DNA of 40,747 bases from Candidatus Undinarchaeota archaeon (GTDB lineage Archaea; SpSt-1190; JASMDC01). Under the pieces are notes generated by a model. That model was not told the DNA's origin. It was given only the letters and a program-made list of their open reading frames with translations, and searched no databases. The translations under genes and the position numbers were made by a program. Location: positions 1 through 40,747 of the forward strand of contig CAZFHY010000026.1 of the NCBI GenBank assembly GCA_964519305.1. Reading direction: 5' to 3'. Below, piece by piece: positions 736 to 35,497 of the stretch. Within the stretch, counting starts at the first letter, position 1. Each line of letters begins with the position of its first letter.

Positions 736-741
736 AGATGC

Positions 742-1311: not shown

Positions 1312-1423
1312 GTTCATCACCTTGTGCCGTGCTTTTGTTTCGACACACGGCCTCAGGTTTCGGCGTCCCTAATAAACCTTTCTTTTGGTGCACCTAAATA
1401 TAGCAATTCAGGGATGTTCGTGA

Positions 1424-1571
1424 AGGGTCCCCTGTGTACGGTGTGGGCCTATACAGAATATGATCGCGAGGGGCCCGTAGGCCCCTCGCATGAAGTCGAG
1501 GTGCGCGATCTCGTCCGGGGGGTGGTCTCGACGTGCCCCTCGACCCTATGATGTGTCGTTGAGCGGATCCT
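1424..1571. ncRNA. Structured non-coding element, copy B (multi-hairpin)
   Basis: P1 AGGGTCC 1424-1430 / GGATCCT 1565-1571; P2 CTGTGTA/TATACAG; P3 perfect 10-bp stem 1466-1489; P4 GTCGAGG 1495-1501 / CCTCGAC 1538-1544; TAAATATA at 1395-1402. Confidence 0.55.
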
Positions 1572-4044: not shown

Positions 4045-4625
4045 CCGTTCACCTCCGCTGGACGTACCTCGCCGTACGGATCGACGGTGACGGTTGCGTG
4101 CACACCCACAGCCCCGGCCATCCCCGAGTGGTCGGTGGCGTGCCGCACACGCTCCACGGTGAACGGAGCGTCCATAGGGCCGGGATCCCTGGTCCTGCAA
4201 TCCTCCAGCGTCCGGCGCAGTACGGCCGGGTCGTTCCCGCCGAGCAGGTCGATGACCTCCACTTGCCGACAGAACCGTTCGATAGCATCGTCGGCGATGT
4301 TCTCGATATAGGGCACGGCTCCCGGTGCACCGATGATCCGGCGCCGCTTGTCAAGACCGTTGCGTACAAGCGCCAGTAGCGATGCGCCCGACAAGTGGCC
4401 GTGCACGTCAGCACCGAAGAGGACCACGAAGCGCAGCCGGGGGTTGGAGAGGACGTTGGCGATCAGCGTCTCGATCCCGATGTTCTCCGTGCGCAGGGGG
4501 CCCCACACCGCAACCAGGTCCGCGGGGACCTCAACATGTCCGCCCATGGTGACGACGACCGCTGGCGACGATGGTTCACCGCGATTGATCTCGCCACCCC
4601 AGGGGTAAAGCCCGTCCTCGGCCAC
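4041..4625 (-). CDS. mtrA: MtrA-family corrinoid protein, soluble (no C-terminal TM anchor)
   Basis: TENIGIE.LIANVLSNPRLRF, corrinoid His in VHGHLSG, IIGAPGAVPYIEN; GTG start at 4625. Confidence 0.9.
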   Translation of the reverse strand: MAEDGLYPWGGEINRGEPSSPAVVVTMGGHVEVPADLVAVWGPLRTENIGIETLIANVLSNPRLRFVVLFGADVHGHLSGASLLALVRNGLDKRRRIIGAPGAVPYIENIADDAIERFCRQVEVIDLLGGNDPAVLRRTLEDCRTRDPGPMDAPFTVERVRHATDHSGMAGAVGVHATVTVDPYGEVRPAEVNG

Positions 4626-4732
4626 GTGAGAGCGATGGCAACACAGCTTTTTAGCTATTGCGCGGACCGCGCCGCCCGACACCCTTATAATATTGAGCGT
4701 ATGTAAGGATGGGGTAGAAAGGAGAGCGTTAA

Positions 4733-5170
4733 ATGGACGTGGACGGGTACGAATATCCAGCAGACCTCCATTACTCACAGGACCATGTATGGGTCCGGAC
4801 GGAGGGGGGGCGCGTAAGGATAGGGTTCACCGGTTTCGCCCAGGACATCGCCGGCGGCCTGCACTACGTGCGGGTGTTCCCCGCGGGGAAGCGGGTCGAG
4901 GCGGGTCGCGCTCTGGGTACCGTCGAGACGGGCAAGTGGGTCGGCCCCGTGGTCGCTCCCGTGTCCGGAACGGTGGTCGAGCCCAACGAGCGCCTGGCCA
5001 GCGAGCCAGGTCTTGTGAACAGCGATCCATTCGGCGATGGGTGGTTCGCCCTCGTGGCCCCTGACGATATCGATAATGGTCTCAGTGGGCTCGTACGGGG
5101 TGACGACCCGTCCTTCGCAGGTTGGATGAAAGAACGTATGAACGCCACCAGGGGGGAGGCACGCACATGA
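4733..5170 (+). CDS. gcvH: Glycine cleavage H / lipoyl-carrier protein
   Basis: HYSQDHVW, IGFT.FAQ, lipoyl Lys in VETGKWVG, APVSG, N.DPFGDGW. Confidence 0.88.
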   Translation: MDVDGYEYPADLHYSQDHVWVRTEGGRVRIGFTGFAQDIAGGLHYVRVFPAGKRVEAGRALGTVETGKWVGPVVAPVSGTVVEPNERLASEPGLVNSDPFGDGWFALVAPDDIDNGLSGLVRGDDPSFAGWMKERMNATRGEART

Positions 5171-15595: not shown

Positions 15596-16333
15596 TCACT
15601 TCCCGGGCCTGAGCGACTGGTAGAGCTCCTCGATGAGCGAGTCGATGCCCGCCCGCTTCTCTGCACCATCATCCTTGTCCACGGTGGTGGAGCGGTCCAG
15701 GGGCTCGCCCTTGACGCCCCAGTCCCAGATGGTGGCCTCGGAGGCCGCTTCGTTCTCCTTGTACGAGACGAGCGGGCTGGTGTCGCCTAGCTCGACCTTC
15801 TCGAGCTGGTAGTGGAACTCGTGACTGCAGCAGTCGTCGAGGTCCCGGCCAGCCTCTGCCGTGGTGGTGGCGACCAGGCCGTACCCGCCAGTGGTGAGGA
15901 ACAGTGTCTTGATATACCGGTCCTCGCCCGTGTCGCACCCGGCGTTCGACCAGGTGGTGATGGCAGCGTAGGGCACGTCCTTTTCCACGGGCCTGTACCC
16001 GGCCAGCTCCTTTTCCAGCTCGCTGTCGGAGAAGCTGCCCTTGAGCGAGTACTCGGGGACCTCGAGCCGGTCGATGCTGCCCCCGGAGCCGCTGAGATTA
16101 CCCTTTCCGGTGGACCGGGTCATCATCCGGCCGGTGAGGTCGCTAGCCTGGCCGATCTTACCGTAGGGCTGGTCGGCCAACGGCGCGTCCTGTGTCAGGG
16201 ATGCGAGGAAGGGCCGGAACCCGTAGAAGTTCATACCGTACTCACGTGAGCCCTCGAGGGAGTAGACGCTGTTCTGCTCGCCGTCCTTGACGACCAGTAG
16301 CGTATCCACGTCGTTGGTGAGGAGGTAAGCCAT
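15596..16333 (-). CDS. Hypothetical acidic protein
   Basis: 245 aa ORF with typical codon usage and an upstream TTAAATA box. Confidence 0.75.
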   Translation of the reverse strand: MAYLLTNDVDTLLVVKDGEQNSVYSLEGSREYGMNFYGFRPFLASLTQDAPLADQPYGKIGQASDLTGRMMTRSTGKGNLSGSGGSIDRLEVPEYSLKGSFSDSELEKELAGYRPVEKDVPYAAITTWSNAGCDTGEDRYIKTLFLTTGGYGLVATTTAEAGRDLDDCCSHEFHYQLEKVELGDTSPLVSYKENEAASEATIWDWGVKGEPLDRSTTVDKDDGAEKRAGIDSLIEELYQSLRPGK

Positions 16334-16484
16334 GGGGACCGGTCACCTTTCGATAGCGAAGGAACCTCCGCTGCTATTTAAGGATTGCCTTGGTGTTACT
16401 ACTCTTGAATGAATATACTTTGGGGGGCCGTCTTTACCACGGGCGTCCGATTAATATATCTTCCATCCCCTGATGGACCCTGGT

Positions 16485-16679
16485 ATGGCCAAGATCGACA
16501 TCAGCTGGATCTTCGTGCTCATAGGGGGCTTCACCGTCGTGAGCGCCGCGCTCGACCTGCCGTTCTTCATGCAGCACCCCAAGGCCCGCGGCCTCTCGAG
16601 GATAATCGGGTACTCGGGGGCACGTGCGTTCTACATATTCTTCGGCCTGGTCTTGATAGTCGTTGGGCTCAATAATTAG
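16485..16679 (+). CDS. Small two-TM membrane protein, Imm17-like
   Basis: A..D..FFM...KAR.....IG...AR.FY..FG pattern recalled from the Imm17 family; TTAATATA upstream. Confidence 0.65.
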   Translation: MAKIDISWIFVLIGGFTVVSAALDLPFFMQHPKARGLSRIIGYSGARAFYIFFGLVLIVVGLNN

Positions 16680-16691
16680 TGATCGCGTCCC

Positions 16692-17063
16692 TCACCGGTA
16701 CGGCGCGCAGTCCTTGATGATCCGCTTGTCGTCCTCGAGGTACGCCCGGTACTCCTGATAGTTGCCGAAGGCCCGCAGGAGGATGAGCCGGGACCCGGCG
16801 ATGGCGTACACGTAGTGGACGCGGTCCCTCTTTGCCCTGAACACCGTGAACCCGCCCACGTGCCGCTCGTACTTGTGCATCTCGTGGTAGTGCATGCGGG
16901 TGCAGTCGAGGATGTCGGCCAGAACGTCCTCGTGATCGGGGACGCCCTTGCGGAACGCCGGGGTGACCACGGCCTCCTCGAGCGACGGCCGGACCGTGTA
17001 GAAGTGGCTGCTGCAGTTGAGGCAGCGGTCCGCCTTGTGCTCGCACGGGTTCGGCAGGGGCAT
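16692..17063 (-). CDS. Hypothetical protein: N-terminal Cys cluster plus RelE/ParE-like fold
   Basis: CEH..RCLNC, then T..FRK...VFRAK...YVYAI....LILL; start ATG 17063 about 25 nt after AATAAAAA. Confidence 0.6.
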   Translation of the reverse strand: MPLPNPCEHKADRCLNCSSHFYTVRPSLEEAVVTPAFRKGVPDHEDVLADILDCTRMHYHEMHKYERHVGGFTVFRAKRDRVHYVYAIAGSRLILLRAFGNYQEYRAYLEDDKRIIKDCAPYR

Positions 17064-22907: not shown

Positions 22908-22973
22908 CGCCCTCGTCCGCCCGTGCGATGCCTATTTAATGGTTCGTTGTCGGCACGCTGATAGGTCGTGTCC

Positions 22974-23531
22974 ATGGATGATCGAACACTTCTTCGTATC
23001 GTACTGATTATCAGCATCGCGTCGCTCGCAGCGACGTCTGCCGTGCTGGTCGAGATGCGTGGTGGGAGTGGCACCGCCGCGCCCGGGGGAGAGGGCGCGA
23101 GTCCGCCGGCTAACTATGGGAATCCCTGTCCCTGTTCCCTACCTACCGACTGCGACCGGAACCCATCCCGCTGCGAAGACTGCACGAGTGAGTGCGGGGA
23201 CGATGAGAGCTGCTTCTCATCATGCAAGCGCTGCGTGGAGGGATGCTATGATGGCGATACAATCTGCTATGAGATGTGCATAGAATGCGTCAGGCCGTGC
23301 AATGGCGACGAAGAGTGTTACAGTATATGCGAAGGCTACCGTCCCCGCTTTAACCCCCACTCCGGCGTGGGATCCTATTACATAGGCACCTTCAAGGAGA
23401 TCGCACGGGCCTGCGACCACGATAATGTCTGTATCGAGCGTTGCATTGACGAACTCGGGAATCTGGCCCGTTATTACGGCCGGGATGGTGCGCCGCTCAC
23501 CTGCCTCTCGCGGCCCGAGAGCACGGGATGA
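22974..23531 (+). CDS. MDDRTLL-leader protein with Cys-rich repeats
   Basis: Leader plus PPANYG, then repeated C..C...C..D..C...C. Confidence 0.75.
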   Translation: MDDRTLLRIVLIISIASLAATSAVLVEMRGGSGTAAPGGEGASPPANYGNPCPCSLPTDCDRNPSRCEDCTSECGDDESCFSSCKRCVEGCYDGDTICYEMCIECVRPCNGDEECYSICEGYRPRFNPHSGVGSYYIGTFKEIARACDHDNVCIERCIDELGNLARYYGRDGAPLTCLSRPESTG

Positions 23532-23640
23532 GCGAAGGGTCCTGACACAACGGTCACCTGCCTGCGTCCGGCCTACACGAGCGGCCACCGCGCCCCCCGG
23601 GAAAAGGATATAAACCGGCCCCCGGGCAGACCGTCGCAGT

Positions 23641-24327
23641 ATGTACGACGCCGAGTGCGCGTTCTGCGAGGCCCGTGGCATCGAGGACTGGCGTTTTGTC
23701 GCCGAGACGGAGCACAACTACGTATTCCCCACCTACGGCATGCTCGACCTCGAGGGCTATATGATCATCACTCCCAAGGACCACACGCCCAGCTACGGCG
23801 CGTGGGGGTCCGCAGAAGGTCGCGCCGAGTACCACGACCTGATCGACCGCGCCCGGGATGCCATCAGCGAGCAGTACGGTACGCAGGCGCTTGTGTTCGA
23901 GCACGGCATGACCGGCCAGACCATCAAGCACGCCCACACCCACGTGGTGCCGGGTCTCAGGTTCAACGATGTCATGAACGAACTCGTGGCGACGCTCCCC
24001 TCCGACACATCCTACATGCTCATGGACGAGGTCACTCGCGAGGAGCGCGACGAGCTCAGGCAGCTGGGACACCAGCAGGGCGGGTATCTCTATGTAGAGA
24101 GCGAGGACGCGGCCGCCGTGTTCCTTCTCAAGCCGGCCGACGAGCACAAGCAGATACTGCGCAAGGTCGCAGCGCGCGTGATGGGCAACGAGGACCTGGC
24201 CGACTGGAAGAAGGTGCAGGCCGATCCCGTGCTCAAGGCACGTGACTTGGCTCTCATCAGGTCCACCACGGCCGACATGCGCCCTTACTTCGAGGACATC
24301 AACCAGCGGACGTTCGAGGACGAGTAG
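23641..24327 (+). CDS. HIT-superfamily (CwfJ-like) nucleotide hydrolase
   Basis: CAFC, GY.II.PK.H, VFEHG, HAHTHVVP. Confidence 0.85.
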   Translation: MYDAECAFCEARGIEDWRFVAETEHNYVFPTYGMLDLEGYMIITPKDHTPSYGAWGSAEGRAEYHDLIDRARDAISEQYGTQALVFEHGMTGQTIKHAHTHVVPGLRFNDVMNELVATLPSDTSYMLMDEVTREERDELRQLGHQQGGYLYVESEDAAAVFLLKPADEHKQILRKVAARVMGNEDLADWKKVQADPVLKARDLALIRSTTADMRPYFEDINQRTFEDE

Positions 24328-24436
24328 GTCCCCGTTCGGCGTAGATTATACCATTAATCGTTGTAAGGGAGTTATCCCCCAAAACTGACAGAATTAGCAA
24401 AAACAATAAATAAAGTGGGATAACTAATACTATACA

Positions 24437-25576
24437 GTGGTGACCATCAAGGAACGGACCATAAAGGGCCGGACCTATGTCTACGTTGCAGCTTCTACAT
24501 CGTACAAGGGTGAGAAGAAGAGGTTCGAGAAGCTTGTTGGTCCGAAAGGATTGGATCCCAAGGAGGAGGAGCACAGGAAAGAGTACCTTTCGAGGATCGT
24601 CGATCTTAAAGCTAACTATTATCGCACCTATCTGAGCATCATCCGCGATCCTCTGCGTTACCTCACATCTAAGCACCATTTCTATCTGGGAACCATCGCC
24701 TGGCAGTACCAGCAGTTCTTATCGGACCTGTACCCTCGAGCGCGTGAAAAATACGAGCAGGAGCACGAGGTGCGGTACGTCCACAACACGACCGCCATCG
24801 AGGGAAACACCCTAACCCTCCGTGACACACAACTCGTGCTCGAGCACGATCTTGCGCCGAACGGGAAGGACCTAAGAGAGGTCCATGAGGTTGAGAACTA
24901 CAAGCAGGTCCTCAAGTACGTCCGCTCCTACGAGGGGGATTTCTCCATGGACCTCGTCCTCACGCTCCACGGGCTCATCCAGCGCAACATCGACGATGAC
25001 ACAGCGGGTCACTTTCGACGGATCAACGTTGCCATCAGTGGGAGCACCTGGGAGCCGACACCCTTTCCCCTCGTGGAGCAGGAGCTTGAGAATCTAATCG
25101 CGTGGTATCATGCCCACAAGAAGGACCATCACCCGTTCGAGCTGGCCGGTATGGTCCACCACCGGTTCCTGCAGATCCATCCCTTTGTCGACGGGAACGG
25201 TAGGGTCGCCCGCGAACTGATGAACGTGATACTGCGACGGAACGGATATCCGACCATCATCATCCCGGTCAAGGAGCGTGCGGAGTACATGACGACGCTT
25301 GAGAAGGCGGACAGTGGGGATCTAACTCCTCTCATGCAGTACTTCTTCAAGGTCTTTCTGGACGACTATCGCGATGTGATCGTTGAGTTCTTCCGAGAGT
25401 GGTCCAAGGAGGCAGAATCGAAGGATGGGTCCATGGATGCCCGCGAGGTGGAAGCGTTCCAAGAATTAGTTGCTTGGTTCAACAACCTGTTCACAGACAT
25501 TCTATCCATCGAGGTCGAGTTCAAGCTTGGGATTGCAGAAGCACTAGAGAGCGCCTCTAATGCCCCCAGTTCGTAG
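24437..25576 (+). CDS. Fic family protein (AMPylase)
   Basis: Intact HPFVDGNGRVAR, TTAIEGNTL; visibly more AT-rich than neighbours. Confidence 0.95.
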   Translation: MVTIKERTIKGRTYVYVAASTSYKGEKKRFEKLVGPKGLDPKEEEHRKEYLSRIVDLKANYYRTYLSIIRDPLRYLTSKHHFYLGTIAWQYQQFLSDLYPRAREKYEQEHEVRYVHNTTAIEGNTLTLRDTQLVLEHDLAPNGKDLREVHEVENYKQVLKYVRSYEGDFSMDLVLTLHGLIQRNIDDDTAGHFRRINVAISGSTWEPTPFPLVEQELENLIAWYHAHKKDHHPFELAGMVHHRFLQIHPFVDGNGRVARELMNVILRRNGYPTIIIPVKERAEYMTTLEKADSGDLTPLMQYFFKVFLDDYRDVIVEFFREWSKEAESKDGSMDAREVEAFQELVAWFNNLFTDILSIEVEFKLGIAEALESASNAPSS

Positions 25577-25663
25577 AGCAAGGGCCGTATACGGGCACAA
25601 AAAATGACAAAATCCTCAATTTATGTCTAGAAATGTGCCCGTACACATCCCTTGGATGCGCCC

Positions 25664-26416
25664 CTACGCGTCCAGCTCGTAGATCATGAGGTCCCCGTCC
25701 ACCCGTTCCACCGGCTTGATCTTTGCGTACCCGTCGAACCAGTGCCTGCGCTCGTGCTTCTGCTCCACGAGAGCGTACGGCTTGTACCCGTCACAGATGA
25801 CCACGTGACCGTCGTCGTGCACGGCGGTGGCCGAGTGATGTGTGCGGCTGATCCCGCAGGCTACCACCAGCTGCAGGTCCAGGTCGTCGATACCGGCCCG
25901 ATCCTTGAGAGCGCTGTCCGCGTAATCCATGCACAGCTCCACACCGATGCGGCGACCCTTGTGCTCGACCACGCCATCGTACGGTTCGGCGTTCTTGTTG
26001 TAGTCCCATCCGTACGGCAGCCCGTAGTAGTCGTAGCACCACTCCAGCTCGCCACCGTCGGTCTTTTTAGAGTACTCGCCCACGACATCGCCGTCGGCGA
26101 CCATGGGCATAAGGTTGTAGAGGTAGCCCTCTTCCTGCATGATGTACGAGCCGGGGAGGATGAGCGTGTCGTGACCCTCGGAGAGCTCGCGGAGCCGTTC
26201 CGTGATACCGTCGGCCTCGTCTCTGGTGATGGCCCGGTCCGACGTGAGGGCGAACTCGGGCACCATCAGCACGTCCAGGTCGTGGTCGAGGCAGCCTGCG
26301 ATCCGGTCGATGACCGCGTCAACGTCGGCGTCGGTGCGCATCCCGAAGTATTTCGTGGAGTAGCGCAGCACGCCCACACGGAGCGGTTCTTTCCCGGAGG
26401 AAGGCTCGTCGTGCAT
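25664..26416 (-). CDS. Carbon-nitrogen hydrolase (nitrilase superfamily)
   Basis: Triad motifs VPEF, YSKK, ELCMDY. Confidence 0.85.
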   Translation of the reverse strand: MHDEPSSGKEPLRVGVLRYSTKYFGMRTDADVDAVIDRIAGCLDHDLDVLMVPEFALTSDRAITRDEADGITERLRELSEGHDTLILPGSYIMQEEGYLYNLMPMVADGDVVGEYSKKTDGGELEWCYDYYGLPYGWDYNKNAEPYDGVVEHKGRRIGVELCMDYADSALKDRAGIDDLDLQLVVACGISRTHHSATAVHDDGHVVICDGYKPYALVEQKHERRHWFDGYAKIKPVERVDGDLMIYELDA

Positions 26417-26593
26417 GGTAACAGTGTGCGGTCGCGCGGGGATCGGTTCAAAAAGGTTGGCTTGGGGTGCGGAGGGGTACTACCGCCGGTCGTGGGAGTT
26501 CTATTTGACCAAGAAAGGTGATAGAATGACCGTTAATGTCCGCAGGTGGTGATGCTGAAGTGTATCTGGGAAATCGGAATATTAATATAACCC

Positions 26594-26611
26594 GTAGTAC
26601 ACATGTACTAC
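26594..26611. promoter_or_regulatory. Palindromic operator of the RHH-RelE TA operon
   Basis: GTAGTACA-CA-TGTACTAC between TATA (TTAATATAA 26582-26590) and ATG 26623. Confidence 0.7.
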
Positions 26612-26622
26612 AAGGTGCTGGG

Positions 26623-26850
26623 ATGCCGACCGTACAAGTACGCCTCGGAGACGAGCTGGTAAGGACCGTCGACGCAGCGGTGGAGAAGGGTATCTATCCG
26701 AACAGGTCTGAAGCGGTCAGAGATGCCCTGAGGAGGCTCTTCGCACCGGAACTGAGGGAAGAGGTGCTGGTCGAGGTCCTGAAGAGGTCACAGGGCGCGT
26801 CCTCGGAATTCACGTCCCAGAGCGAGATCGAGGCCGAGTTCGGGATATGA
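26623..26850 (+). CDS. Ribbon-helix-helix (CopG/Arc) antitoxin
   Basis: TVQVRL..ELV..VD..VEKG.YPNRSEAVRDALRRL; acidic tail. Confidence 0.9.
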   Translation: MPTVQVRLGDELVRTVDAAVEKGIYPNRSEAVRDALRRLFAPELREEVLVEVLKRSQGASSEFTSQSEIEAEFGI

Positions 26851-27116
26851 TGGCGTACCGGATAATCTGGCACCGGAAGGCCCTGAAGGAGCTGAGGAAG
26901 CTACCCAAGGATATCGCTCTTCGGTTCATCAGGCGGGCACGTGATCTCAACGAGTACCCCGCAAAGGGCTCACGTCCACTGACAGGATCCCGGTTCCGGA
27001 GCATCCGGGCAGGGGAGTACAGGGCCGTCCTCGATATTGACCACGACAGCCGGACCGTCAGGGTCCTTCTCATCGGCCACCGGAAGAACGTCTACAAGGG
27101 CCTACTCGAGCTGTGA
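26847..27116 (+). CDS. relE: RelE/ParE-family toxin
   Basis: A.KELRKL, RSIRAGEYRAV, IGHRKNVY; overlaps the antitoxin stop. Confidence 0.92.
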   Translation: MMAYRIIWHRKALKELRKLPKDIALRFIRRARDLNEYPAKGSRPLTGSRFRSIRAGEYRAVLDIDHDSRTVRVLLIGHRKNVYKGLLEL

Positions 27117-27172
27117 CCTGGGACGGAGCGCCCCCGTCGGGTTTATATCCGTTAACTCCCCCGGGGAGCACC

Positions 27173-27790
27173 ATGGACGACCGGACGCTCCTCCAGCTCG
27201 TACTGGTCATCTCGGTGCTGACACTGGTCGGCAACGCCCTTGTGCTGAACGAGGTACGCTCGGCGGACGTACCGGCCGGTGGCCCCCCCGCCAACGTCCT
27301 TGACCTGAAGGCGTTCACCATGGCCGACTTCCCGGTCAAGACCAGGGACGACGGGCGAGGGACGTTCTGCGTCAGGAACACCTACTCGAAGTCGTTCAAC
27401 GTGTACTCCCAGTGGTACACCAAGGTGGGCACCCTGGAGCCGGGCCAGACGCGGTGCGCGTACGGACTCCTTCGCCGGGACGTCTCTATCCAGGTGTACG
27501 ACCGGTCGTGCAACAACCACCACGCGTCGCTGGATTCGGTCACCTACCCCACCGGCAAGTGCATCCTGGTGAACGGGTGTCCGAGCTCGTGGGTGTACAG
27601 CTGGCAGGGTGGGCGCGTCAAAACGATGAAGCCCTGCTTCCCATACGTTGCGCCCACGCCTGTGCCCACGCCCACGCCTGTGCCCACACCCACGCCCCGC
27701 CCAACACCGTACCCCACGCCTGAGGGCTCCCCGATCCCCACGTACGATCCCTGGTCGAACCCCGGTGGCCTGAACACCCGCGACAGGTGA
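27173..27790 (+). CDS. MDDRTLL-leader protein (beta-rich Cys domain, PT tail), paralogue 1
   Basis: Leader plus GPPAN; TTTATATCC box about 25 nt upstream; near-identical to 27843-28454. Confidence 0.85.
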   Translation: MDDRTLLQLVLVISVLTLVGNALVLNEVRSADVPAGGPPANVLDLKAFTMADFPVKTRDDGRGTFCVRNTYSKSFNVYSQWYTKVGTLEPGQTRCAYGLLRRDVSIQVYDRSCNNHHASLDSVTYPTGKCILVNGCPSSWVYSWQGGRVKTMKPCFPYVAPTPVPTPTPVPTPTPRPTPYPTPEGSPIPTYDPWSNPGGLNTRDR

Positions 27791-27842
27791 GCGCCAGGGC
27801 CGCGTCGTCGGTTTTAAATCCCTTCCCCCTGTCGGCGAGACC

Positions 27843-28454
27843 ATGGACCACCGCACGTCCCTCCGCCTCGTACTGGTCATCTCGGTGCTGGCACTGGCCG
27901 GCAACGCCCTGGTGCTGAACGAGTTGCGCTCGGCGGACGCAACGGCCGGTAAGTTACCCGCCAACGCCGCGACAACGAAGGCGTTCACCATGGCCGACTT
28001 CCCGGTGAGGACCGCGGACGACGGGAGAGCGACGTTCTGTGCCAGGAACGCCTACTCGAAGCCGTTCAACGTGTACTCCCAGAGAAATAACAAGGTGGGC
28101 ACCCTGGAGCCGGGCCAGACGCGGTGCGCGTACGGCCTCGACCGTCGGGACGTCTCTATCCAGGTGTTCGACCGCTCGTGCAACAACAATCTGAAATCGC
28201 TGTGGGATACCACCCCCAGGGCCAAGTGCATCCTGGTGAACGGGTGCCCGATGTCGTGGGTGTACAGCTGGCAGGGGGCGCGCGCCACGTACATGAAACC
28301 CTGCTTCCCGTACGTTGCGCCCACGCCGGTACCGACCCCCACGCCGGTACCGATCCCCACGCCGGTCCCAACGTCGTACCCCCTGCTGCCGGGTCCTCCG
28401 CTCCCCACGGACGAGCCCTGGAAGCCTGGCGACCTGGGATCCCGGGAACGATGA
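27843..28454 (+). CDS. MDDRTLL-leader protein, tandem paralogue 2
   Basis: MDHRTSL leader plus LPAN; TTTTAAAT box upstream; shared KAFTMADFPV...KCILVNGCP.SWVYSWQG. Confidence 0.85.
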   Translation: MDHRTSLRLVLVISVLALAGNALVLNELRSADATAGKLPANAATTKAFTMADFPVRTADDGRATFCARNAYSKPFNVYSQRNNKVGTLEPGQTRCAYGLDRRDVSIQVFDRSCNNNLKSLWDTTPRAKCILVNGCPMSWVYSWQGARATYMKPCFPYVAPTPVPTPTPVPIPTPVPTSYPLLPGPPLPTDEPWKPGDLGSRER

Positions 28455-28463
28455 GCGGACGGA

Positions 28464-28575
28464 ATCAGGTCCTAGAAAGAAAATAGGGCATAGTATAGCG
28501 GGGGGAAGGAAGTAAATTCCAGGTGCCACACCATGCCCTTGTGATAAAAATTACCCGTCCGGAGTTGATAAACCT
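28464..28575 (-). ncRNA. Promoter plus hairpin small RNA, copy 1
   Basis: Minus strand: GGTTTATCAA box, then stem AGGGCATGGTGTGGC/GCTATACTATGCCCT around a pyrimidine-rich loop, then a U-rich tail; homologous to 31682-31785. Confidence 0.6.
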
Positions 28576-28663
28576 GTCCTTTCGGGTGCCGTCACGTCCC
28601 TCTAGGCCCGGTCCGGGACCTCCCCGACGAAACGTTTAATACTTGGAACGCGATTGCCCTGCC

Positions 28664-30802
28664 ATGGCCCGACGCGACCACCTACCGCTCCTCACGACGG
28701 TGCTCATCATAACAGCGCTCCTGTCCATGGTATCCGTGGCCGGGTGCGACACAGGTGCCGGCATGAACTGCCGGACCCATCCTGCCGATTGCCCCTGCGA
28801 CATGCCCGATGCGCCCATCTGCGACCCGCTCAACCCGGGCGCCGACGAACGCGGGTGCTTCAGCGAGGGCTTCGACCATAGAACCGAGGGCGGCGTACTG
28901 AACTGCTGCCAGCCGAACGACGGGACCGGGAAGGAGGCATGCATGGTAGGGGAGCACGATCCGTGCCCGGGGGACTACAGGAAGATCCCGGGCGAATGGG
29001 TCGACCCGGGCAACCCCTCCAACTGCGCCATGGTCGAACACAGGGCCGACCCCCGGATGTGCGGCGATCCCCACGCTGGCCAGCCCATGGGCGGGGATGG
29101 TGCCCAGATCAGGATCGAACCGAGGCTCTTCAGGGAGCGCGAGCCGGTGGAGGTATGCGGCACCCTCATCACGCTCACCGGGCTGCCGGACAGACCGCCT
29201 GAGGCCCACTTCGAGATCGTCCACCGGGACGGTGCCCGCGAGAGCTTCATGGTGCCGCTGGACCCGGGTTTAGAGCACGCGTACTTCCATTTCTACGACT
29301 TCGCCCTCGTAAAGGACCGCGGGGAGATCAGGGTCGAGGGGAACGCGGTCGAGCTCAGCGTGCACAAGCGTGACGACTGCGGTCCCTTCCCCCCTGCTGA
29401 TGCCGGTGCGGGTGGCGACCGCCCTCCAGATGATCCGTGCGCGCGGTGCAACTGGGAGTGCGAGCAGCCGTGCGAGATCTGCAAGCGGGAGGGCCGTGGC
29501 GCCGAGTGCGACGGGCCCTGCAGCCACGACTTTTTGAAGGAGTGCAGGGGCCGCGAGTGCGTCCAGGTGTGCGGGGGCGTACCGGTCGACCGGCCGCCCG
29601 AGGACCCGTGCGCTCGGTGCAACTGGGACTGCGGGCAGCCGTGCGAGATCTGCAAGCGGGAGGGCCGTGGCGCCGAGTGTGACGGGCCCTGCGGCCACGA
29701 CACTTTGAAGGAGTGCATGGACCGCGAGTGCGTCAAGGTATGCGTCGGCGAACCAGGCGATATGAACCGCGATGACATATCCATCGGCGACCGTGGCGAC
29801 ATGGAGAAGCGGGAGGGGGTCCCCCCTGCCAGTGACACCGGCCTGTCCAACGGCGCGGCCTGTGCCGAGGACGACCAGTGCGCCAGCGAGAACTGCATCT
29901 CGGGCGTGTGCTGCATCGACGGGAAACAGTGCTGCCGCGCGGACAAGGACTGCGAGCAGGGCAAGACCTGCGACACGGAACGTGCGTACTGCACCGGAGC
30001 TTCGGACGCCATCGAGTTCTTCAAGGAGTACTGGGAGATCGTGGCCGCCGCCCTCGGTTCGCTGGGAGCTGCTGCCTACTACCTCAACATGGTCAAGCGC
30101 AAGACCATCGGCGAGGAGAAGGTGGTGATCCGCCGTGGTAAGACCATGGAGGGCAACGCCGTGAAGCTGGGCATCAAGGTGAAGAACGACTCCACGTTCA
30201 AGATCACCGAGGTGAAGGTCACCATCGACTATCCCAAGGCCTTCAAGGTGGAGGGCGGCTCGCCCACCGTGGAGCTGGGCAACATCCGGCCCGACGAGTT
30301 CCAGAGCGCCATCTTCAAGCTCGTCCCCATGCGGTGCGTGAAGGGCACAGTGACCGGGTACACCACCTACGAGAACAACAAGGGCGAGACCAAGGTAGTC
30401 CAGATCGATCCCGTGGACGTGGGCAGTGTCTGCCCGTTCCTCGAGCGGGTCCGGCTCTCTCCGGACGAGTTCGCCCAGCGGAAGCCCACCCTGCAGAGCG
30501 GGAACAAGAGCATGACCGTCCGGACCGATGCCAACAGGATCTTCGAGCTGATCAAGGGCAGGTTCAACAACATCCACACCGTGCACGAGGAGGTGAGCCC
30601 CGACCAGACGAGCATGCTCGGCGAGTACTCGGGCCAGGGTGCGTACAGCAAGGCCTTCATCGGCGCCAGTATCAAGGTGGTCTACGGCGACCAGCCGCAG
30701 GTCGAGCTGTCGGTGTACGGCGAGGACGAGGCCATGGTCACCGGGCTGCTGAGCGAGCTGGTGGACCTCATCGAGAAGGAAGAGGGCATCGGCGAGGTGT
30801 AG
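28664..30802 (+). CDS. Type I membrane protein: Cys-rich ectodomain, TM, cytoplasmic beta-sandwich plus platform (adaptin-appendage-like) domain
   Basis: Signal peptide; two 57-aa repeats with 10 Cys each; TM IVAAALGSLGAAAYYL; C-terminal PFLERVRLSPDEFAQR...EEVSPDQ...VELSV...LLSEL. Confidence 0.85.
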   Translation: MARRDHLPLLTTVLIITALLSMVSVAGCDTGAGMNCRTHPADCPCDMPDAPICDPLNPGADERGCFSEGFDHRTEGGVLNCCQPNDGTGKEACMVGEHDPCPGDYRKIPGEWVDPGNPSNCAMVEHRADPRMCGDPHAGQPMGGDGAQIRIEPRLFREREPVEVCGTLITLTGLPDRPPEAHFEIVHRDGARESFMVPLDPGLEHAYFHFYDFALVKDRGEIRVEGNAVELSVHKRDDCGPFPPADAGAGGDRPPDDPCARCNWECEQPCEICKREGRGAECDGPCSHDFLKECRGRECVQVCGGVPVDRPPEDPCARCNWDCGQPCEICKREGRGAECDGPCGHDTLKECMDRECVKVCVGEPGDMNRDDISIGDRGDMEKREGVPPASDTGLSNGAACAEDDQCASENCISGVCCIDGKQCCRADKDCEQGKTCDTERAYCTGASDAIEFFKEYWEIVAAALGSLGAAAYYLNMVKRKTIGEEKVVIRRGKTMEGNAVKLGIKVKNDSTFKITEVKVTIDYPKAFKVEGGSPTVELGNIRPDEFQSAIFKLVPMRCVKGTVTGYTTYENNKGETKVVQIDPVDVGSVCPFLERVRLSPDEFAQRKPTLQSGNKSMTVRTDANRIFELIKGRFNNIHTVHEEVSPDQTSMLGEYSGQGAYSKAFIGASIKVVYGDQPQVELSVYGEDEAMVTGLLSELVDLIEKEEGIGEV
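29417..29750 (+). repeat. Intragenic tandem repeat, 171-nt period, two copies
   Basis: DRPP.DPCARCNW.C.QPCEICKREGRGAECDGPC.HD.LKEC starting at 29417 and 29588. Confidence 0.95.
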
Positions 30803-30809
30803 GTGCACC

Positions 30810-31565
30810 GTGGACGACCGCACGCTGCTGCAGCTGCTGCTCGCGGTAACGGTGCTCGCCCTAGCGCTCAACCTGTACACCCTGACCGCTGTGCGGACAC
30901 AGGCCGCGGCAGGTGCACCGCTCAACGCTCCCTGCTTGTCACCTTTCGGGTGCCCTTCAATAGATGGCCCTCCGGCGAACTACGGGCGTGTCGATCACTT
31001 CCTGGACCAGAAGCAGGGCTTATCCTTCGACAGGCGCTCGACGAGCCCCTACGGGTACGTAGGGCCCCTTTCCTTGAACGGTGAAGAGCTGGCGTCCGAC
31101 ATTATCGTTACCGGTCCCGACGGCGGGGAGAGGAAGGTGTTCTGCGTGCTCGGGTTATTCTCCTGGAGCACACATCCATACAAGCCGATGATGTTCGACT
31201 GCATGGTCTCTGCTCACAACGCCCGGATTATCGGTGACATGCTCCTCCAGTACCAGTCCGGCCCGGAGCGGCAGATGGAGCTGGAGCTGGCGTTCGACAT
31301 CTATCAACCCGATACCCGTCGCTATGGGGATGGGTACTACGAGGCTGCCAGTGGGGAGCTCAAGTGCCCGGTCCTCAAGGAGGGGAACGGGGACCTGGCC
31401 ATCAACATCGAGGATGAGTCGTTCCGCGTGGGCGGATCCCAGGAGCTCAACCGCATGTTCTTCATGGCAGCGCCGCCGTTGGAACATTCGAACGAGATCC
31501 AGCTCACGGACGCGAGTGATCCGGCGGCAAAATACGTGAAGGTCTTCGGTGGACCTGCCGTATAG
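30810..31565 (+). CDS. MDDRTLL-leader protein with beta-rich payload
   Basis: GTG start; leader plus GPPANYG; payload unrelated to other family members. Confidence 0.8.
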   Translation: MDDRTLLQLLLAVTVLALALNLYTLTAVRTQAAAGAPLNAPCLSPFGCPSIDGPPANYGRVDHFLDQKQGLSFDRRSTSPYGYVGPLSLNGEELASDIIVTGPDGGERKVFCVLGLFSWSTHPYKPMMFDCMVSAHNARIIGDMLLQYQSGPERQMELELAFDIYQPDTRRYGDGYYEAASGELKCPVLKEGNGDLAINIEDESFRVGGSQELNRMFFMAAPPLEHSNEIQLTDASDPAAKYVKVFGGPAV

Positions 31566-31582
31566 CGCGGGGAGACCGGCCA

Positions 31583-31637
31583 TAGGCTTTTATCCCTGCA
31601 CTCCCTAGAGGGCCGATATGGACGACCGCACGCTGCT
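31583..31637 (+). repeat. 55-bp direct repeat (promoter plus start of MDDRTLL leader), copy 1
   Basis: TAGGCTTTTATCCCTGCACTCCCTAGAGGGCCGATATGGACGACCGCACGCTGCT; 54/55 identical to 35295-35349. Confidence 0.95.
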
Positions 31638-31707
31638 CGAGCTCGTTCTAGCGGTTGCGGTGCACACTGTCAGGGGAGTGTATCAGGAGCAAGAAGGTCG
31701 GACATGA
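31618..31707 (+). pseudogene. Truncated MDDRTLL-leader ORF (29 aa)
   Basis: MDDRTLLELVLAVAV, then similarity is lost and the ORF stops within the hairpin element. Confidence 0.7.
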
Positions 31708-31785
31708 TGCAGCGGGGGGAAGGAAGCAAATCCAGGTGCCACACCATGCCCTGTACATACTGACCCGTCCGGAACTTAATATTCT
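31682..31785 (-). ncRNA. Promoter plus hairpin small RNA, copy 2
   Basis: Minus strand: AATATTAAG box, then stem GGGCATGGTGTGGC/GCTGCATCATGTCC with the same loop as copy 1. Confidence 0.6.
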
Positions 31786-31923
31786 GTGTATAGGATGTCG
31801 TTACGGTATTGGGGATCCGCCCGGACGTCGGTGGCCTCTGTAGCGTACGGGGAAGGTGATGCCGCCTGTCGGGATCAGATCGAATTGAATAGTGGCCGTG
31901 ATGACCGCGCGGTGCGACGCTCG

Positions 31924-33972
31924 CTACCCGTCCTCGATGGTGAGTGTGAACTCCTCCACCCCGTACCACTCGTAGCAGCGGTCCCGGTGGGTGACGTTGC
32001 ACTCGGCGTCGGGCACGTACGCGCACAGTTCGCGCTCGCATGCGTTGCATCCCTCGGCCGGTTCCAGGCACTCGATGCCGTCGTCGCTCCAGACGTCGCA
32101 TAGGGGGAGGTACTCGCACACGTCCACGTGGAAGATCCACTCCCCCGCCGGCGCGGTCGCCGGGTCATCCGGGAGTTGGAGGGTGGTGGGGATGGTGTTC
32201 GCCTGCTCCCCGAACACCTTCACGCCGCCCGGGTCGGTGAACCATGTGTTGGGGCTGCACTCGGCGGGTCCGTCCAGGCACGCAGCGGGAACGGCCGCCC
32301 GCAGCTGCGAGAGCAGGTCGTCGAGCCCCATCTCCTCCAGCTCGTCGATGAAGGTGGCGTCGAGCTGGAGCTCGAGGGAGCCCTGGCCGTCCAGGGCGGC
32401 GAGGTGCGGGTAGACGCAGAAGCACCGCTCCTCCTCCACTATGTTGTTGATCGCGACGTAGATGTCCCTCGTGCCCCATTCACGCTCCATCCTGATGGTC
32501 GAGGGGATGCTGAGCATGACCTTCTCGTTCTTGGTCTGTATGTCCATCAGTATGCGCGCCCTCATGCTGTCGGAGATGTCATCGGCCATGTCGTTGATGC
32601 CCTCGCTGGCCGGGATGAGGCTCGCGTCGTACTCGCAGTGCGAGGCGGCCGCCCAGTCGCCCGTGGGCTCGCAATCCCCGAAGCTGCTGTCGAACGGGCA
32701 GCCCGGGTCGCCGGTCTCCGCGTGGTCGGGGAGCTTCTCCAGGAGACCGACCATGCCGTCCAGTGTATCGAACTCGCACCCCACGATCAGCTCCTTGTAG
32801 ATGATCGCAAAGCCGCAGGTCCCATCCTCCATCATGCTAACGACGAACGTCTCGACCGGCTCCACCCCCTCCTCCGTCACGTTGACCGCCGCCCCGCTGC
32901 AGTCGGCGGCCAGGTCCAGGAAGCACGCGTAGTCGTGCCCGCAGTCGGCGGGCTCCCCCGGCGGCGTCTCGGATGGCCACGGCGCTGCCGTGGGGGACGG
33001 CGATGGCTCCGGGGTGGGCTCAGGCGTCGAGGTGGGCGTCGGTAACGGGGCCTTGGTGGGCGACGGCGACGGTGAGGGGACCTTAGTGGGCGTTGGTGAC
33101 GGGGCCTTCGTCGGCGACGGTGATGGTGCCTTGGTGGGTGACGGCGAGGGCGCCTTCGTGGGCGACGGCGACGGATCATCCCGTGGTGTCGGTGACGGGG
33201 TGGCCGATGGCACCGGCCGCCCCTTGATGGTGAACGTCACGGTCCGGGTGGCGGTGTTGCCCGCCTCGTCCTCGGCGGTGATCTCCAGCTCATGCTTCCC
33301 CGGCTCGGTGACCCACGTGCCGCTCTCGAAGGGCTCGCCGTTGAGCAGGACCTCCTTGACGCGGAGGTTGTAGTCGTCCACGGTGACGAAGGGCATGGCC
33401 TCTTGGTCGAAGGTCCCGCCCTCCTTTATCCCGCTGACCTTGATCTTGGGCCCGGTCCGGTCGATGGTGAACGAGAACGCCTTCGTCCCCTCGTTCCCGG
33501 CCGAGTCCGTGGCGACGACCGTGAGGGTGTGATCGCCCTCGTCGCTCACCTCGGTCCCGCTCTCGTACGGCTCACCGTTGAGTGTGACGGTACGCACCGA
33601 CAGGTGCGCGTCCTCGATGGTCACCTTCGGCGTGACCGCCGTGGCGTAGACCGCTCCCGCCTCCACGCCCTCGATGGTGATGGTCGGCGGCGTCCCCTCC
33701 ATGTAGACCGAGGCGATGACGCCAACCAGCCCGAGGACGAGGACGCCGACGAGGACGGCCCACATGAGCGCCGTCCTGTCCCGGGCGGGCGCACCGGACG
33801 TGTGGGAGGGATGGGCCGGCCGGTAGACGGCGGGCCGCCCGTCCATGGGGAGCGCGGCGTCGACCTCGGCCGGAGGCCACCCTGCGTTCACGAGCAGTCG
33901 GCGTATCATCCACGGCGGTGTGCCGCGGTTGACGTAGTACTGGATGGCGTACACGAGCTGCTGGCTGACCAC
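31924..33972 (-). CDS. Type II membrane surface protein: cytoplasmic helical motif, TM, two Ig-like repeats, PSPTKA linker, Cys-rich C-terminus
   Basis: Two TxTD.AGN Ig repeats; (A)PSPSPTK repeats at about 33000-33200. Confidence 0.85.
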   Translation of the reverse strand: MVSQQLVYAIQYYVNRGTPPWMIRRLLVNAGWPPAEVDAALPMDGRPAVYRPAHPSHTSGAPARDRTALMWAVLVGVLVLGLVGVIASVYMEGTPPTITIEGVEAGAVYATAVTPKVTIEDAHLSVRTVTLNGEPYESGTEVSDEGDHTLTVVATDSAGNEGTKAFSFTIDRTGPKIKVSGIKEGGTFDQEAMPFVTVDDYNLRVKEVLLNGEPFESGTWVTEPGKHELEITAEDEAGNTATRTVTFTIKGRPVPSATPSPTPRDDPSPSPTKAPSPSPTKAPSPSPTKAPSPTPTKVPSPSPSPTKAPLPTPTSTPEPTPEPSPSPTAAPWPSETPPGEPADCGHDYACFLDLAADCSGAAVNVTEEGVEPVETFVVSMMEDGTCGFAIIYKELIVGCEFDTLDGMVGLLEKLPDHAETGDPGCPFDSSFGDCEPTGDWAAASHCEYDASLIPASEGINDMADDISDSMRARILMDIQTKNEKVMLSIPSTIRMEREWGTRDIYVAINNIVEEERCFCVYPHLAALDGQGSLELQLDATFIDELEEMGLDDLLSQLRAAVPAACLDGPAECSPNTWFTDPGGVKVFGEQANTIPTTLQLPDDPATAPAGEWIFHVDVCEYLPLCDVWSDDGIECLEPAEGCNACERELCAYVPDAECNVTHRDRCYEWYGVEEFTLTIEDG

Positions 33973-34141
33973 GGTCCTTCCCCTTGCGGAGCCCTCGTTC
34001 CCGTAAGGACGTCTAGCTTCAAATAGGTTCCTGCGCGAGGCCGATGAAAGGGCGGTCCGCTACCCGTCACGCAGGCAGCATGTCCTCGGGCCGCAGCGGC
34101 GGGTGTGCGAGAATGTCCTCCACGCTCCTTCCGTTAGCGAC

Positions 34142-34948
34142 CTAGTCGGTGATGTACCCGAACCCGATCCGGTACTGGTTCACCTTGGTATCGGTGCGCG
34201 GTCCCAGCTCTTCTTTTGGGACGCCGTTACCGACGGCGGTCCGGTACGCGATGATGTCGTCGACCATCCCCGGGAACCTCTCGGCCATTTCGTGGTACTC
34301 CGCGCACTTCTGCTCGGCGAACGCGAGCCCGGCGGCCTCCATCGGTCCCTCGTCGCCGATGGCCGTGAACAGGGTGAGGGCCGCGTACTCGCCGAACCCC
34401 TCCATGACGGCCATCTCGGTGAACATCTCGCACTCGGTGGCGTAGTCCATCTCCCCTGCCTCGCGGAACCCCGGCATCCTCCACTCGGTGCCGTGCCGTT
34501 GGAGGACGTTGGCCTGGAGCGCGTGTGCTACCTCGTGGGCCATGGTGTACTCCAGCTGTCCCGGCCCGTACAGCTCCGGCTCCTCGAGCACGAAGTCGCT
34601 GATGAGGACGGTATGAGTGGTATCGTCGTAGATGCCCGCGCCCAGCATCCGGAACATGTTGGCGGCCATCTCCAGCTCCTTGGGCGAGGCGTCCTCGCGG
34701 TAGTGCGGGCTGGTGCGCTGGAGGAACTCGGTGTACGCGGCCTTGTCGCCGACGCGCACGGCGGGCCGCTCTCCGAACTCGATGCCCAGGACGCGCTCGT
34801 ACCCGTCGATGATGGTGTCTACGAGATGCTCGCATTCGTCCAGACCCGCGTAGTGCACGGGCGAGGCGCCGGCGCAGGGGGTAGATAAAGGTTGTGTTTG
34901 GGTGGCGGTGACAGGTACGTCGTTGGGGGCTGTTGGGGCCTCTACCAC
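34142..34948 (-). CDS. Zincin-like metallopeptidase
   Basis: TMAHEVAHALQ (HExxH) plus downstream MEGFGEY; start uncertain. Confidence 0.8.
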   Translation of the reverse strand: MVEAPTAPNDVPVTATQTQPLSTPCAGASPVHYAGLDECEHLVDTIIDGYERVLGIEFGERPAVRVGDKAAYTEFLQRTSPHYREDASPKELEMAANMFRMLGAGIYDDTTHTVLISDFVLEEPELYGPGQLEYTMAHEVAHALQANVLQRHGTEWRMPGFREAGEMDYATECEMFTEMAVMEGFGEYAALTLFTAIGDEGPMEAAGLAFAEQKCAEYHEMAERFPGMVDDIIAYRTAVGNGVPKEELGPRTDTKVNQYRIGFGYITD

Positions 34949-35048
34949 GGGACGGACGCCCCTTGAGCGCTTTGGAAGGTTTTATAATCCGCTACGGTGC
35001 ACCATCCATCAGAGGGAAGGGAAAGGGAGACGACAGCGGGCCACCCCC

Positions 35049-35297
35049 ATGGTACACGACGACCTATTAGCGGCAGCTCTCACCCGGGGCCTGATGATCA
35101 CCTGGGAGTGCTGGGACACGACCCGGGACCTTACCGCGCTCGAGGCCCCAGCCCTCGCCGGCACACCGGGCGTGCAGACGCTCGTCGTCCTCACGATGAT
35201 GGTGCCCCTTGCCGCCTGCATCGTGCTCACGTGCCTGTGCCTCCCCGACCTCCTGCGGACGACGGGACAGGGACCGGGCGCTGACGCCCGTCCGTAG
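35049..35297 (+). CDS. Possible small membrane protein
   Basis: 82 aa with one hydrophobic stretch; divergent TATA at about 34980. Confidence 0.35.
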   Translation: MVHDDLLAAALTRGLMITWECWDTTRDLTALEAPALAGTPGVQTLVVLTMMVPLAACIVLTCLCLPDLLRTTGQGPGADARP

Positions 35298-35349
35298 GCT
35301 TATATCCCTGCACTCCCTAGAGGGCCGATATGGACGACCGCACGCTGCT
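35295..35349 (+). repeat. 55-bp direct repeat (promoter plus start of MDDRTLL leader), copy 2
   Basis: 54/55 identical to 31583-31637. Confidence 0.95.
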
Positions 35350-35497
35350 GCAACTGGTGCTGGTCGTGGTCGTGCTCACCCTCGTGCTCAACCTGTACAC
35401 CCTGACCGAGCTCAGGAAGCATGAGCCCAAGGTGCCGGCCACACTTCCTTCGAACTGTGGGCATTCCGGCATTGTCTGCCAGCCGCAACGGCCGTGA
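35330..35497 (+). CDS. Minimal MDDRTLL-leader protein (55 aa)
   Basis: Hand translation: MDDRTLLQLVLVVVVLTLVLNLYTLTELRKHEPKVPATLPSNCGHSGIVCQPQRP; below the ORF-track size cut-off. Confidence 0.7.
   Translation: MDDRTLLQLVLVVVVLTLVLNLYTLTELRKHEPKVPATLPSNCGHSGIVCQPQRP

Follow-up and report, generated by a model that had tools for sequence, protein, structure and literature searches.

What is the role of an N-terminal leader that stays constant from gene to gene while the protein behind it changes? The question is raised by a 40,747-nt contig of an uncultured marine archaeon (CAZFHY010000026.1, assembly GCA_964519305.1; the whole contig is called the window here). A sequence-only reading had noted six open reading frames (ORFs) on its + strand, at 22974, 27173, 27843, 30810, 31618 and 35330, that begin alike and run on into different payloads. 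All six are present at these starts. Each opens with M-D-[DH]-R-T-[LS]-L and a hydrophobic run of about 20 residues; after this helix the five intact ORFs add E/A-x-R, a linker and a P-x-N motif, and 31618 is truncated. From comparative genomics, the reading that best fits the leader is that of a membrane tether processed by a legumain: it is probably a membrane-tethering pro-leader, cut after the Asn of P-x-N by a membrane-anchored fusion of a solute-binding domain with a legumain-type (C13) peptidase, encoded on contig C6 of the same genome. Below, the genome holding the window (3.6 Mb, 65% GC, rated 99.8% complete) is G000, its contigs carry C-numbers, and the genome of the sister species is G001.

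Specificity and conserved features of the leader

A hidden Markov model (HMM) of the first 48 residues, built from 12 seeds, matched 30 of 78,972 six-frame ORFs of G000 at E <= 1e-4, and the next match had E = 0.23; generic signal peptides are not matched. A profile search of genomes returned 29 leader matches in G000, on 10 contigs; in a further 40 genomes, of which 1 shares its genus, 15 its class and 24 its domain, there was no match. When 1.84 billion representative proteins were searched with the leader profile, 62 matched at E <= 1e-3: 19 of these have the sequence of a G000 ORF, and the other 43 derive from different assemblies. Querying GTDB species genomes and JGI metagenomes with the pattern M-D-D-R-T-L-L-[QRH]-[LI] did not identify a relative; a word-index search with the leader profile, at the 'longer' lengths, was crowded out, with 6 matches among 8000 candidates. 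Neither Pfam nor NCBIfam contains a match for the leader or for most payloads. By these profile searches, the leader is a specific family rather than a generic signal peptide.

The only invariant columns in an alignment of 28 leaders (A1) are Met1 and the Pro and Asn of P-x-N. The motif is found in 71 of 73 family members, 36-56 residues from Met1, the exceptions being the 31618 stub and P0055. Across the 71 sites, position P4 holds Pro 50 times and Ala 15 times, Ala fills P2 in 49 cases, and 18 residue types are found at P1'. An N-x-S/T sequon occurs at the conserved Asn in only 4 of the 71, which does not fit a site of N-glycosylation. The n-region, M-D-D-R, is acidic and unlike that of typical Sec signals, as had been pointed out; with this n-region and no conserved A-x-A past the helix, a Sec signal cut by signal peptidase I was rejected. 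An archaeal class III (type IV pilin-like) signal was likewise rejected, the [KR]-[GA] motif being absent from the leader alignment; examples of this type, read by eye, are present in neighbouring NHL proteins.

In the window, GC content at third codon positions is 0.78-0.88 in the leader ORFs, which indicates that they are coding, and synonymous codons vary at conserved residues (for Arg, CGC 13, CGG 6, CGA 3, CGT 1 and AGG 3), which indicates that conservation acts on the peptide. Promoter, 5' end and leader have been duplicated as one DNA block, and the sequence further downstream is unrelated; the repeat pairs 31576-31667/35288-35379 and 30811-30888/35331-35408 are 84% and 85% identical, respectively. 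Similarity had been said to stop abruptly past the motif, in front of unrelated payloads. It does end at the Asn, and the payloads are unrelated elsewhere, but the products of 27173 and 27843 are full-length paralogues (74% aa identity) that are alike throughout.

A candidate processing enzyme

G000 contains one strong C13 gene. Its 697-aa product has an Arg-rich N-terminus, a helix, a Leu/Ile/Val-type solute-binding domain (PF13458) and a Peptidase_C13 domain, an architecture referred to here as PBP-C13. The match to Pfam PF01650 has E = 1.8e-50 (172.4 bits against a cut-off of 22.8; 175 bits in the genome scan), and that to human legumain (4aw9) has E = 1.8e-35. The C13 domain retains the legumain equivalents N-Y-R-H-Q (Asn42, Arg44, His45), D-H-G (His148) and E-V-C (Cys189), and those of Ser216 and Asp231 as well; an offset of 25 between chain and protein numbering of legumain was taken from residue identities. 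All four residues of the Asn-specific S1 pocket (Arg44, His45, Ser216, Asp231) are identical in the archaeal enzyme, and its H558, G559 and C600 are invariant across 16 family members. These four pocket residues are given for the Asn specificity of legumain in section 12 of one review (PMC4357240), and plant legumains prefer Asn strongly at P1 in proteome-wide assays (PMC7489914). Because the N-terminus is Arg-rich and a helix follows, the side on which the protease domain lies should be the outside.

When the 79 proteins encoded around 10 leader loci were scanned with Pfam, there was no recurrent partner of the leader genes, with the exception of this 697-aa protein. The gene appears to be the middle one of an operon, with a dCache gene on one side and a gene for a transmembrane (TM)-APAN protein on the other, and three tiny leader ORFs diverge from it (Table 1). 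The sequence-only reading had noted a zincin peptidase in the window cluster. The protein concerned, encoded at 34142..34948, does contain HExxH, though its SprT-like match of 20.1 bits lies under the Pfam cut-off of 25.6; the legumain-type C13 peptidase, on another contig, is the likelier processing enzyme.

Association of precursors with the enzyme

The sister species offers a contrast in presence and absence. G001 matches the left flank of the window at 88% DNA identity up to position 22905, and in the slot between the DUF1667 and HIT-like genes it has a PIN toxin-antitoxin pair in place of the 22974 gene. The leader has no match in G001 (best E = 0.56); for C13 there are weak matches only, of 30.7 and 21.5 bits, and no strong homologue was found. 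The block of C6 that holds the C13, Cache and leader genes is replaced by other DNA in G001.

Outside this pair of genomes, the PBP-C13 fusion was recovered in 114 proteins at E <= 1e-10 among 1776 candidates, nearly all of them two-domain, and at 339 loci in species-representative genomes; the taxa include Methanomicrobiales, ANME-1, Thermoplasmata, Myxococcota, Chloroflexota and Bacteroidales. For an adjacency test, 79 PBP-C13 loci from other genomes were kept and searched for small ORFs in which an N-terminal helix is followed by [PA]-P-x-N. Within 2.5 kb of the enzyme gene (313 kb in all) there were 24 such ORFs, as against 2 further away (489 kb; binomial p = 2e-8). When each of the other 19 residues was substituted for Asn, only 0-4 ORFs were found near the enzyme.

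Analogous archaeal ORFs with a TM helix, P-x-N and a tail stand beside the enzyme mainly in Methanomicrobiales. The small ORFs form tandem arrays with a conserved leader and short, variable, often Cys-rich tails. When 20 of them were aligned (A4), three columns were invariant, the Pro and the Asn of P-x-N being two of the three, and similarity did not extend past the Asn. In the order of genome G041, for which 151 genomes were compared, 11 contain both precursors and enzyme, 2 precursors only, 6 the enzyme only and 132 neither. The enzyme is present in 11 of the 13 genomes with A4-type precursors and in 6 of the 138 without them (odds ratio 121, Fisher p = 5.5e-11, uncorrected for kinship), an asymmetry consistent with precursors depending on the enzyme rather than the enzyme on precursors. 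In an ANME-1 metagenome-assembled genome (MAG), the single A1-type match lies 1.4 kb from a PBP-C13 gene.

A third tie between P-x-N and the enzyme comes from bacteria. The payload of 30810 is homologous (E = 5e-33 and 2e-10) to lipoproteins in two bacterial MAGs, in which a lipobox is followed by APAN or PPDN and then by the same domain, encoded 17-25 nt from a C13 gene. Since these homologues are lipoproteins, the 30810 domain is likely to be extracytoplasmic.

Other neighbours also recur at PBP-C13 loci: a Bmp/PnrA-like solute-binding protein (PF02608) is encoded beside the fusion at 32 of 80 loci (L037-L115), bacterial and archaeal, and a dCache protein at 11. On one contig labelled as Patescibacteria group (L039), an ORF of 48 aa at 7617-7763 combines a helix and APGN with four Cys in a tail of 14 residues, and lies 238 nt upstream of PBP-C13; this is the sole bacterial-labelled locus with the archaeal-type arrangement.

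Payloads

That the payloads are not one paralogue family is borne out by clustering: BLAST (E < 1e-4) sorts the 63 payloads that have at least 25 aa into 37 clusters, 25 of them singletons. With this number of clusters and the diversity of folds among them, the proposal of a reusable N-terminal anchoring or processing leader in front of unrelated cargo is supported. Many payloads are Cys-rich helical repeats. The 22974 payload contains 20 Cys in a repeating C-x2-C-x3-C-x6-C-x3 spacing and groups in BLAST cluster 1 with C8:1685, P0036, P0039, P0041 and P0061. Others include an Hcp domain (PF05638) at C16:76028, a carboxypeptidase-regulatory domain (CarboxypepD_reg) at C40:1050 and, in three leader proteins of C16, coiled coils with no Cys. 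Sizes reach 477 aa, and at the other extreme the leader trio of C6 ends 1-6 residues past the Asn. A metagenomic family member, P0043, carries a saposin-B-type domain (PF05184, E = 2.8e-11) behind the leader; to our knowledge, saposin-like domains are unusual in archaea.

Structural prediction was informative for one window protein. The AlphaFold2 model of 27173 (predicted local distance difference test, pLDDT, 53) was too weak for use. That of 30810, built from 6 sequences only, has a mean pLDDT of 70.6, with a helix at residues 3-33, a stretch below 50 at residues 26-58 that includes PPAN (54-57), and a folded domain from residue 60. The best structural match of this payload is Francisella IglC (2qwu_A; Foldseek E = 3e-4), to which VIA-align aligned 169 of 207 residues with Z = 12.4 and rmsd 3.5; Hcp chains gave Z of about 7. 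As modelled, the payload has the Hcp/IglC tube-protein fold, a shared fold that shows no function.

Similar cargo stands behind other leaders. A full Hcp (98.5 bits) follows a helix and P-x-N, with a non-family leader, at C16:91284, and a second IglC-like helix-PxN protein, again with another leader, is encoded downstream of the coiled-coil trio, at C16:65670. G000 has two Hcp-domain (PF05638) genes, C16:90622-91284 (-) and C16:74985-76028 (-), and each encodes a membrane helix and P-x-N before the Hcp domain. A search of G000, at 99.8% completeness, for a VipB sheath gene found none. The Hcp-like proteins of G000 thus seem to leave the cell by a path that has nothing to do with type VI secretion.

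Proposed mechanism and its alternatives

As we see it, the leader helix would insert N-in/C-out and hold the payload outside, on a disordered linker of about 10-25 residues ending in [P/A]-P-x-N. The PBP-C13 asparaginyl endopeptidase (C6:17727-19817) would then cut after the invariant Asn, freeing the payload and leaving the leader helix in the membrane; what is freed would range from disulfide-rich peptides and domains through Hcp/IglC-like sandwiches and coiled coils to almost nothing. The topology, the cut and the identity of the cutting enzyme are what we infer from comparative genomics, the topology from the nature of the payloads and the bacterial lipoprotein homologues and not from charge rules.

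Several observations weigh against this reading. The n-region is acidic, and the flanking charges leave the topology unfixed. Most of the 30 leader genes of G000, on 10 contigs, are far from the C13 gene, and the comparison of G000 with G001 is a single contrast. At the PBP-C13 loci, a strict TM-PxN ORF lies within 2.5 kb in 12 of 35 archaeal-labelled cases and in only 1 of 44 bacterial-labelled ones. None of the six enzyme-only genomes has an adjacent TM-PxN ORF (windows of 2.4-13 kb), which implies that the enzyme has other roles or substrates. Homology between the G000 leader and the Methanomicrobiales-type leader was not supported, with an hhalign probability of 12%. Lastly, Pro occupies P1' at 3 of the 71 sites, and Pro at P1' probably makes a poor legumain site.

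If the leader were instead an uncleaved signal-anchor, its carriers would be type II membrane proteins, P-P-A-N a rigid stalk or hinge and the C13 gene an unrelated neighbour. Pro-rich stalks are common, and both the distance of most leader genes from the C13 gene and the six C13-bearing genomes with no adjacent precursor would fit. However, a hinge needs no invariant Asn, and among the 20 residues Asn alone is enriched next to C13 genes; members ending 1-6 residues past the Asn have no ectodomain to hold, and precursors and enzyme co-occur at the genome level. We regard a plain anchor as unlikely. A different use of the same enzyme is also conceivable: as a transpeptidase, like GPI8 or the plant peptide asparaginyl ligases, C13 would expel the tail as leaving group and join the Asn of the leader to an amine acceptor, such as the head group of a lipid, a polymer of the envelope or a further protein. 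Its relatives in the PDB include the glycosylphosphatidylinositol (GPI)-anchor transamidase and peptide asparaginyl ligases (E = 1e-27 to 1e-33), and the 1-13-residue tails of many members resemble the recognition tails of ligase substrates. In such a reaction, though, the acyl-enzyme would hold the membrane helix and not the cargo, and folded payloads of 100-480 residues would have no obvious use, which makes transpeptidation distinctly unlikely.

The leader might also be removed by another protease, either signal peptidase I or the HExxH protein at 34142-34948, with P-x-N read by a non-C13 factor. The HExxH gene does lie in the window cluster, and an M23 peptidase gene adjoins the leader member C1:399131, yet neither peptidase recurs near other members at the 10 loci; the lack of a conserved A-x-A past the helix and the HExxH match under the Pfam cut-off also render this very unlikely. 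Highly improbable, in our view, is a strict polymorphic-toxin or ribosomally made, post-translationally modified peptide (RiPP) system, in which the payloads would be toxins with immunity partners or cores modified before leader removal. The sequence-only reading had drawn this likeness, and the conserved N-terminus, the hypervariable and often Cys-rich C-termini, the tandem arrays and the position of the loci among toxin-antitoxin genes in variable regions recall such systems. The likeness is one of analogy only: Pfam and NCBIfam identify no toxin domain in the window payloads, NCBIfam has no matching precursor family, no recurrent small gene was seen downstream, no immunity gene was found (a type of gene that sequence alone does not reveal), and the 79 proteins at 10 loci include no radical-SAM, YcaO, LanM-type or other modifying enzyme beside the members. 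Payloads that reach 477 aa and include Hcp, saposin and carboxypeptidase-regulatory folds are, moreover, not RiPP cores. Processing of the tether by the PBP-C13 fusion is the reading that we carry forward.

Genomic context of the leader genes

The features of the window and of the C6 locus are collected in Table 1.

Table 1. Leader genes and associated features. Plain positions refer to the window; the prefix C6 marks a contig of the same genome.
Feature	Position	Strand	Remarks
TATA-like box TATTTAAT	22933..22940	+	33 nt 5' of 22974 ATG
Leader + 138-aa payload	22974..23531	+	SPPAN; Asn is residue 47, nt 23112-23114
RHH antitoxin and ParE toxin pair	26536..27116	+	just upstream of 27173
TATA-like box TTTATATCC	27142..27150	+	22 nt 5' of 27173 ATG; implies nearly leaderless mRNA
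Leader + 164-aa beta/Cys payload with Pro/Thr-rich tail	27173..27790	+	GPPAN; Asn41; BLAST cluster 3
Tandem paralogue of 27173	27843..28454	+	M-D-H-R-T-S-L; KLPAN; 74% aa identity, full length
3'-flank element of about 110 nt, first copy	28470..28590	+	DNA repeat; 3' of 27843 gene
Leader + 194-aa IglC/Hcp-like beta-sandwich (model)	30810..31565	+	GTG start; GPPAN; Asn57
TATA-like box TTTTATCC of truncated copy	31588..31595	+	promoter and 5' end 84% identical to 35288-35379
Leader stub, 29 aa, without P-x-N	31618..31707	+	first ~14 leader codons, then unrelated sequence into 3'-flank element
3'-flank element of about 110 nt, second copy	31680..31790	+	DNA repeat; after 31618 stub
268-aa HExxH protein	34142..34948	-	no recurrent link to leader genes found (10 loci)
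TATA-like box TTATATCC	35300..35307	+	22 nt 5' of 35330 ATG
Leader + 13-residue tail with two Cys	35330..35497	+	TLPSN; Asn42
117-aa TM-APAN protein, weak thrombospondin-type-3 match	C6:17319-17669	-	starts 58 nt downstream of PBP-C13
PBP-C13 gene (697 aa)	C6:17727-19817	-	apparent operon, middle gene
dCache gene	C6:19824-20990	-	apparent operon with PBP-C13
Three tiny leader ORFs	C6:21168-21625	divergent from C13 gene	1.35-1.8 kb away

Most copies had been credited with their own TATA box. This holds for five of the six, with boxes 22-33 nt before the start codons, a spacing that suggests nearly leaderless mRNAs; 30810 has none, and its GTG start lies 8 nt past the stop of a 719-aa gene (28643-30802, +) with which it is probably co-transcribed. 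The stub at 31618 is, from its sequence, probably the deletion scar of an earlier cassette, since the 3'-flank element follows it. This element has no Rfam match, and a 48-nt piece of it is also found at C15:101329-101376. Rfam and tRNA scans of the window between 22 and 36 kb gave no match.

Among sequencing runs, the possible sources of the window DNA are eight DNA runs from 2 marine/seawater studies, and no RNA run. Shuffling of cargo at the leader junctions, which the sequence-only reading had envisaged at read level, was not seen in them: contigs assembled from the runs only break at the repeated leader, and the breaks (27436-27450, 31608-31620 and 35320-35332) coincide with leader 5' ends. 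A weak joint, 27205>31576, with 26 nt per side, was rejected as a rearrangement because the repeat explains it best.

The cluster is interspersed with toxin-antitoxin genes, as had been noted, with the ribbon-helix-helix (RHH)-ParE pair of Table 1 and further pairs elsewhere. The pairs by leader genes are of RHH-ParE, MazE, Phd-ParE, PIN/UPF0175 and nucleotidyltransferase types, at L007:1024-1287 and 4330-4891 and L004:7751-9494 and 15743-16704; the PIN pair in the slot of the 22974 gene in the sister genome is at L032 (G001:C52) 776-1587. The leader genes behave as accessory cargo of variable regions.

The 719-aa protein upstream of 30810 starts with a helix that ends in V-A-G-C, followed by a Cys-rich region, another helix and a C-terminal domain that matches no family; it contains P-L-N about 30 residues past the first helix, and its gene includes a 171-nt tandem duplication (29416-29757, 88%). 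For window positions 30221-30775, a second 555-nt contig with 70 differences was found in 3 of 4 runs at about the depth of the reference form, which suggests that the C-terminal domain has a paralogue or a second allele existing alongside it. Further upstream in the window, at 196-2117 (-), are three tandem paralogous genes of about 180-190 aa that start M-Y-D-[MI]-D and share a conserved L-T-Y-L-T.

A search of G000 for mcrA was negative, which indicates that the organism is not a methanogen or ANME archaeon. Its genome, at 3.6 Mb, compares with 0.6-1.2 Mb in the DPANN-type (Undinarchaeales) relatives of the 'same class'; the class assignment or its linkage looks doubtful.

Relation to known systems and significance

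Enzymes of the legumain family are known from plant and animal organelles, where they mature proteins and Cys-rich peptides; the products of the plant enzymes (vacuolar processing enzymes) include seed proteins and, among Cys-rich peptides, the cyclotides and PawS-derived peptides. The archaeal enzyme belongs to this same family (MEROPS C13) and keeps its catalytic His and Cys and its S1 residues, and in both settings it is an Asn that separates a carrier or pro-part from a disulfide-rich product. Unlike plant and animal legumains, however, it is prokaryotic, predicted to be membrane-anchored and fused to a solute-binding domain, and its putative substrates are tethered by their own N-terminal helix. 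The Asn precedes the product in the archaeal system and ends it in the plant system; no cyclisation is implied here.

Conotoxin families and double-glycine-leader bacteriocins combine a conserved signal or pro region with a hypervariable, Cys-rich mature part. The archaeal family resembles them in its conserved leader, the loss of similarity at the processing site, the tandem arrays and the variable Cys-rich products. It differs in protease class and motif and in having a membrane helix with an acidic n-region as leader; unlike the case of double-glycine bacteriocins, no ABC-C39 exporter is encoded beside the leader genes at the 10 loci scanned. Sortases, archaeosortases and GPI8, the last a C13 relative of the archaeal enzyme, likewise join a short invariant motif by a membrane helix to a membrane-associated cysteine peptidase. 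Their signals are C-terminal and their cargo is moved to an anchor, whereas the archaeal signal is N-terminal and the predicted cleavage would free the cargo.

Full-text literature searches identified no function or substrate assigned to prokaryotic members of the legumain family, and no description of such a legumain-cut leader route in prokaryotes. One study does no more than list C13 genes for MBG-D archaea (PMC6461988), and a term search of a 2023 review of RiPP leader peptidases found asparaginyl endopeptidase in its reference list only (PMC10885120).

The finding supplies prokaryotic legumains with candidate substrates, with a motif that can be recognised and with a cut site open to testing. 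It also points to many readily mined disulfide-rich peptides that archaea secrete, and to Hcp-like proteins lacking a type VI apparatus. Somewhat more tentatively, the solute-binding-domain/legumain fusion together with helix-linker-P-x-N (or lipobox-...-N) substrates might constitute a general and hitherto unrecognised sorting and maturation route of archaea and bacteria, of a scope like that of sortases and archaeosortases. On that view, a single asparaginyl endopeptidase (or transpeptidase) facing outward would act on dozens of unrelated cargoes in each genome, among them disulfide-rich peptides, which are maybe signals or archaeocins, and Hcp/IglC-like proteins exported without a type VI apparatus. 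Plant asparaginyl ligases already serve as protein-engineering tools, and if the archaeal enzyme acts at neutral pH on P-x-N tethers it may become another.

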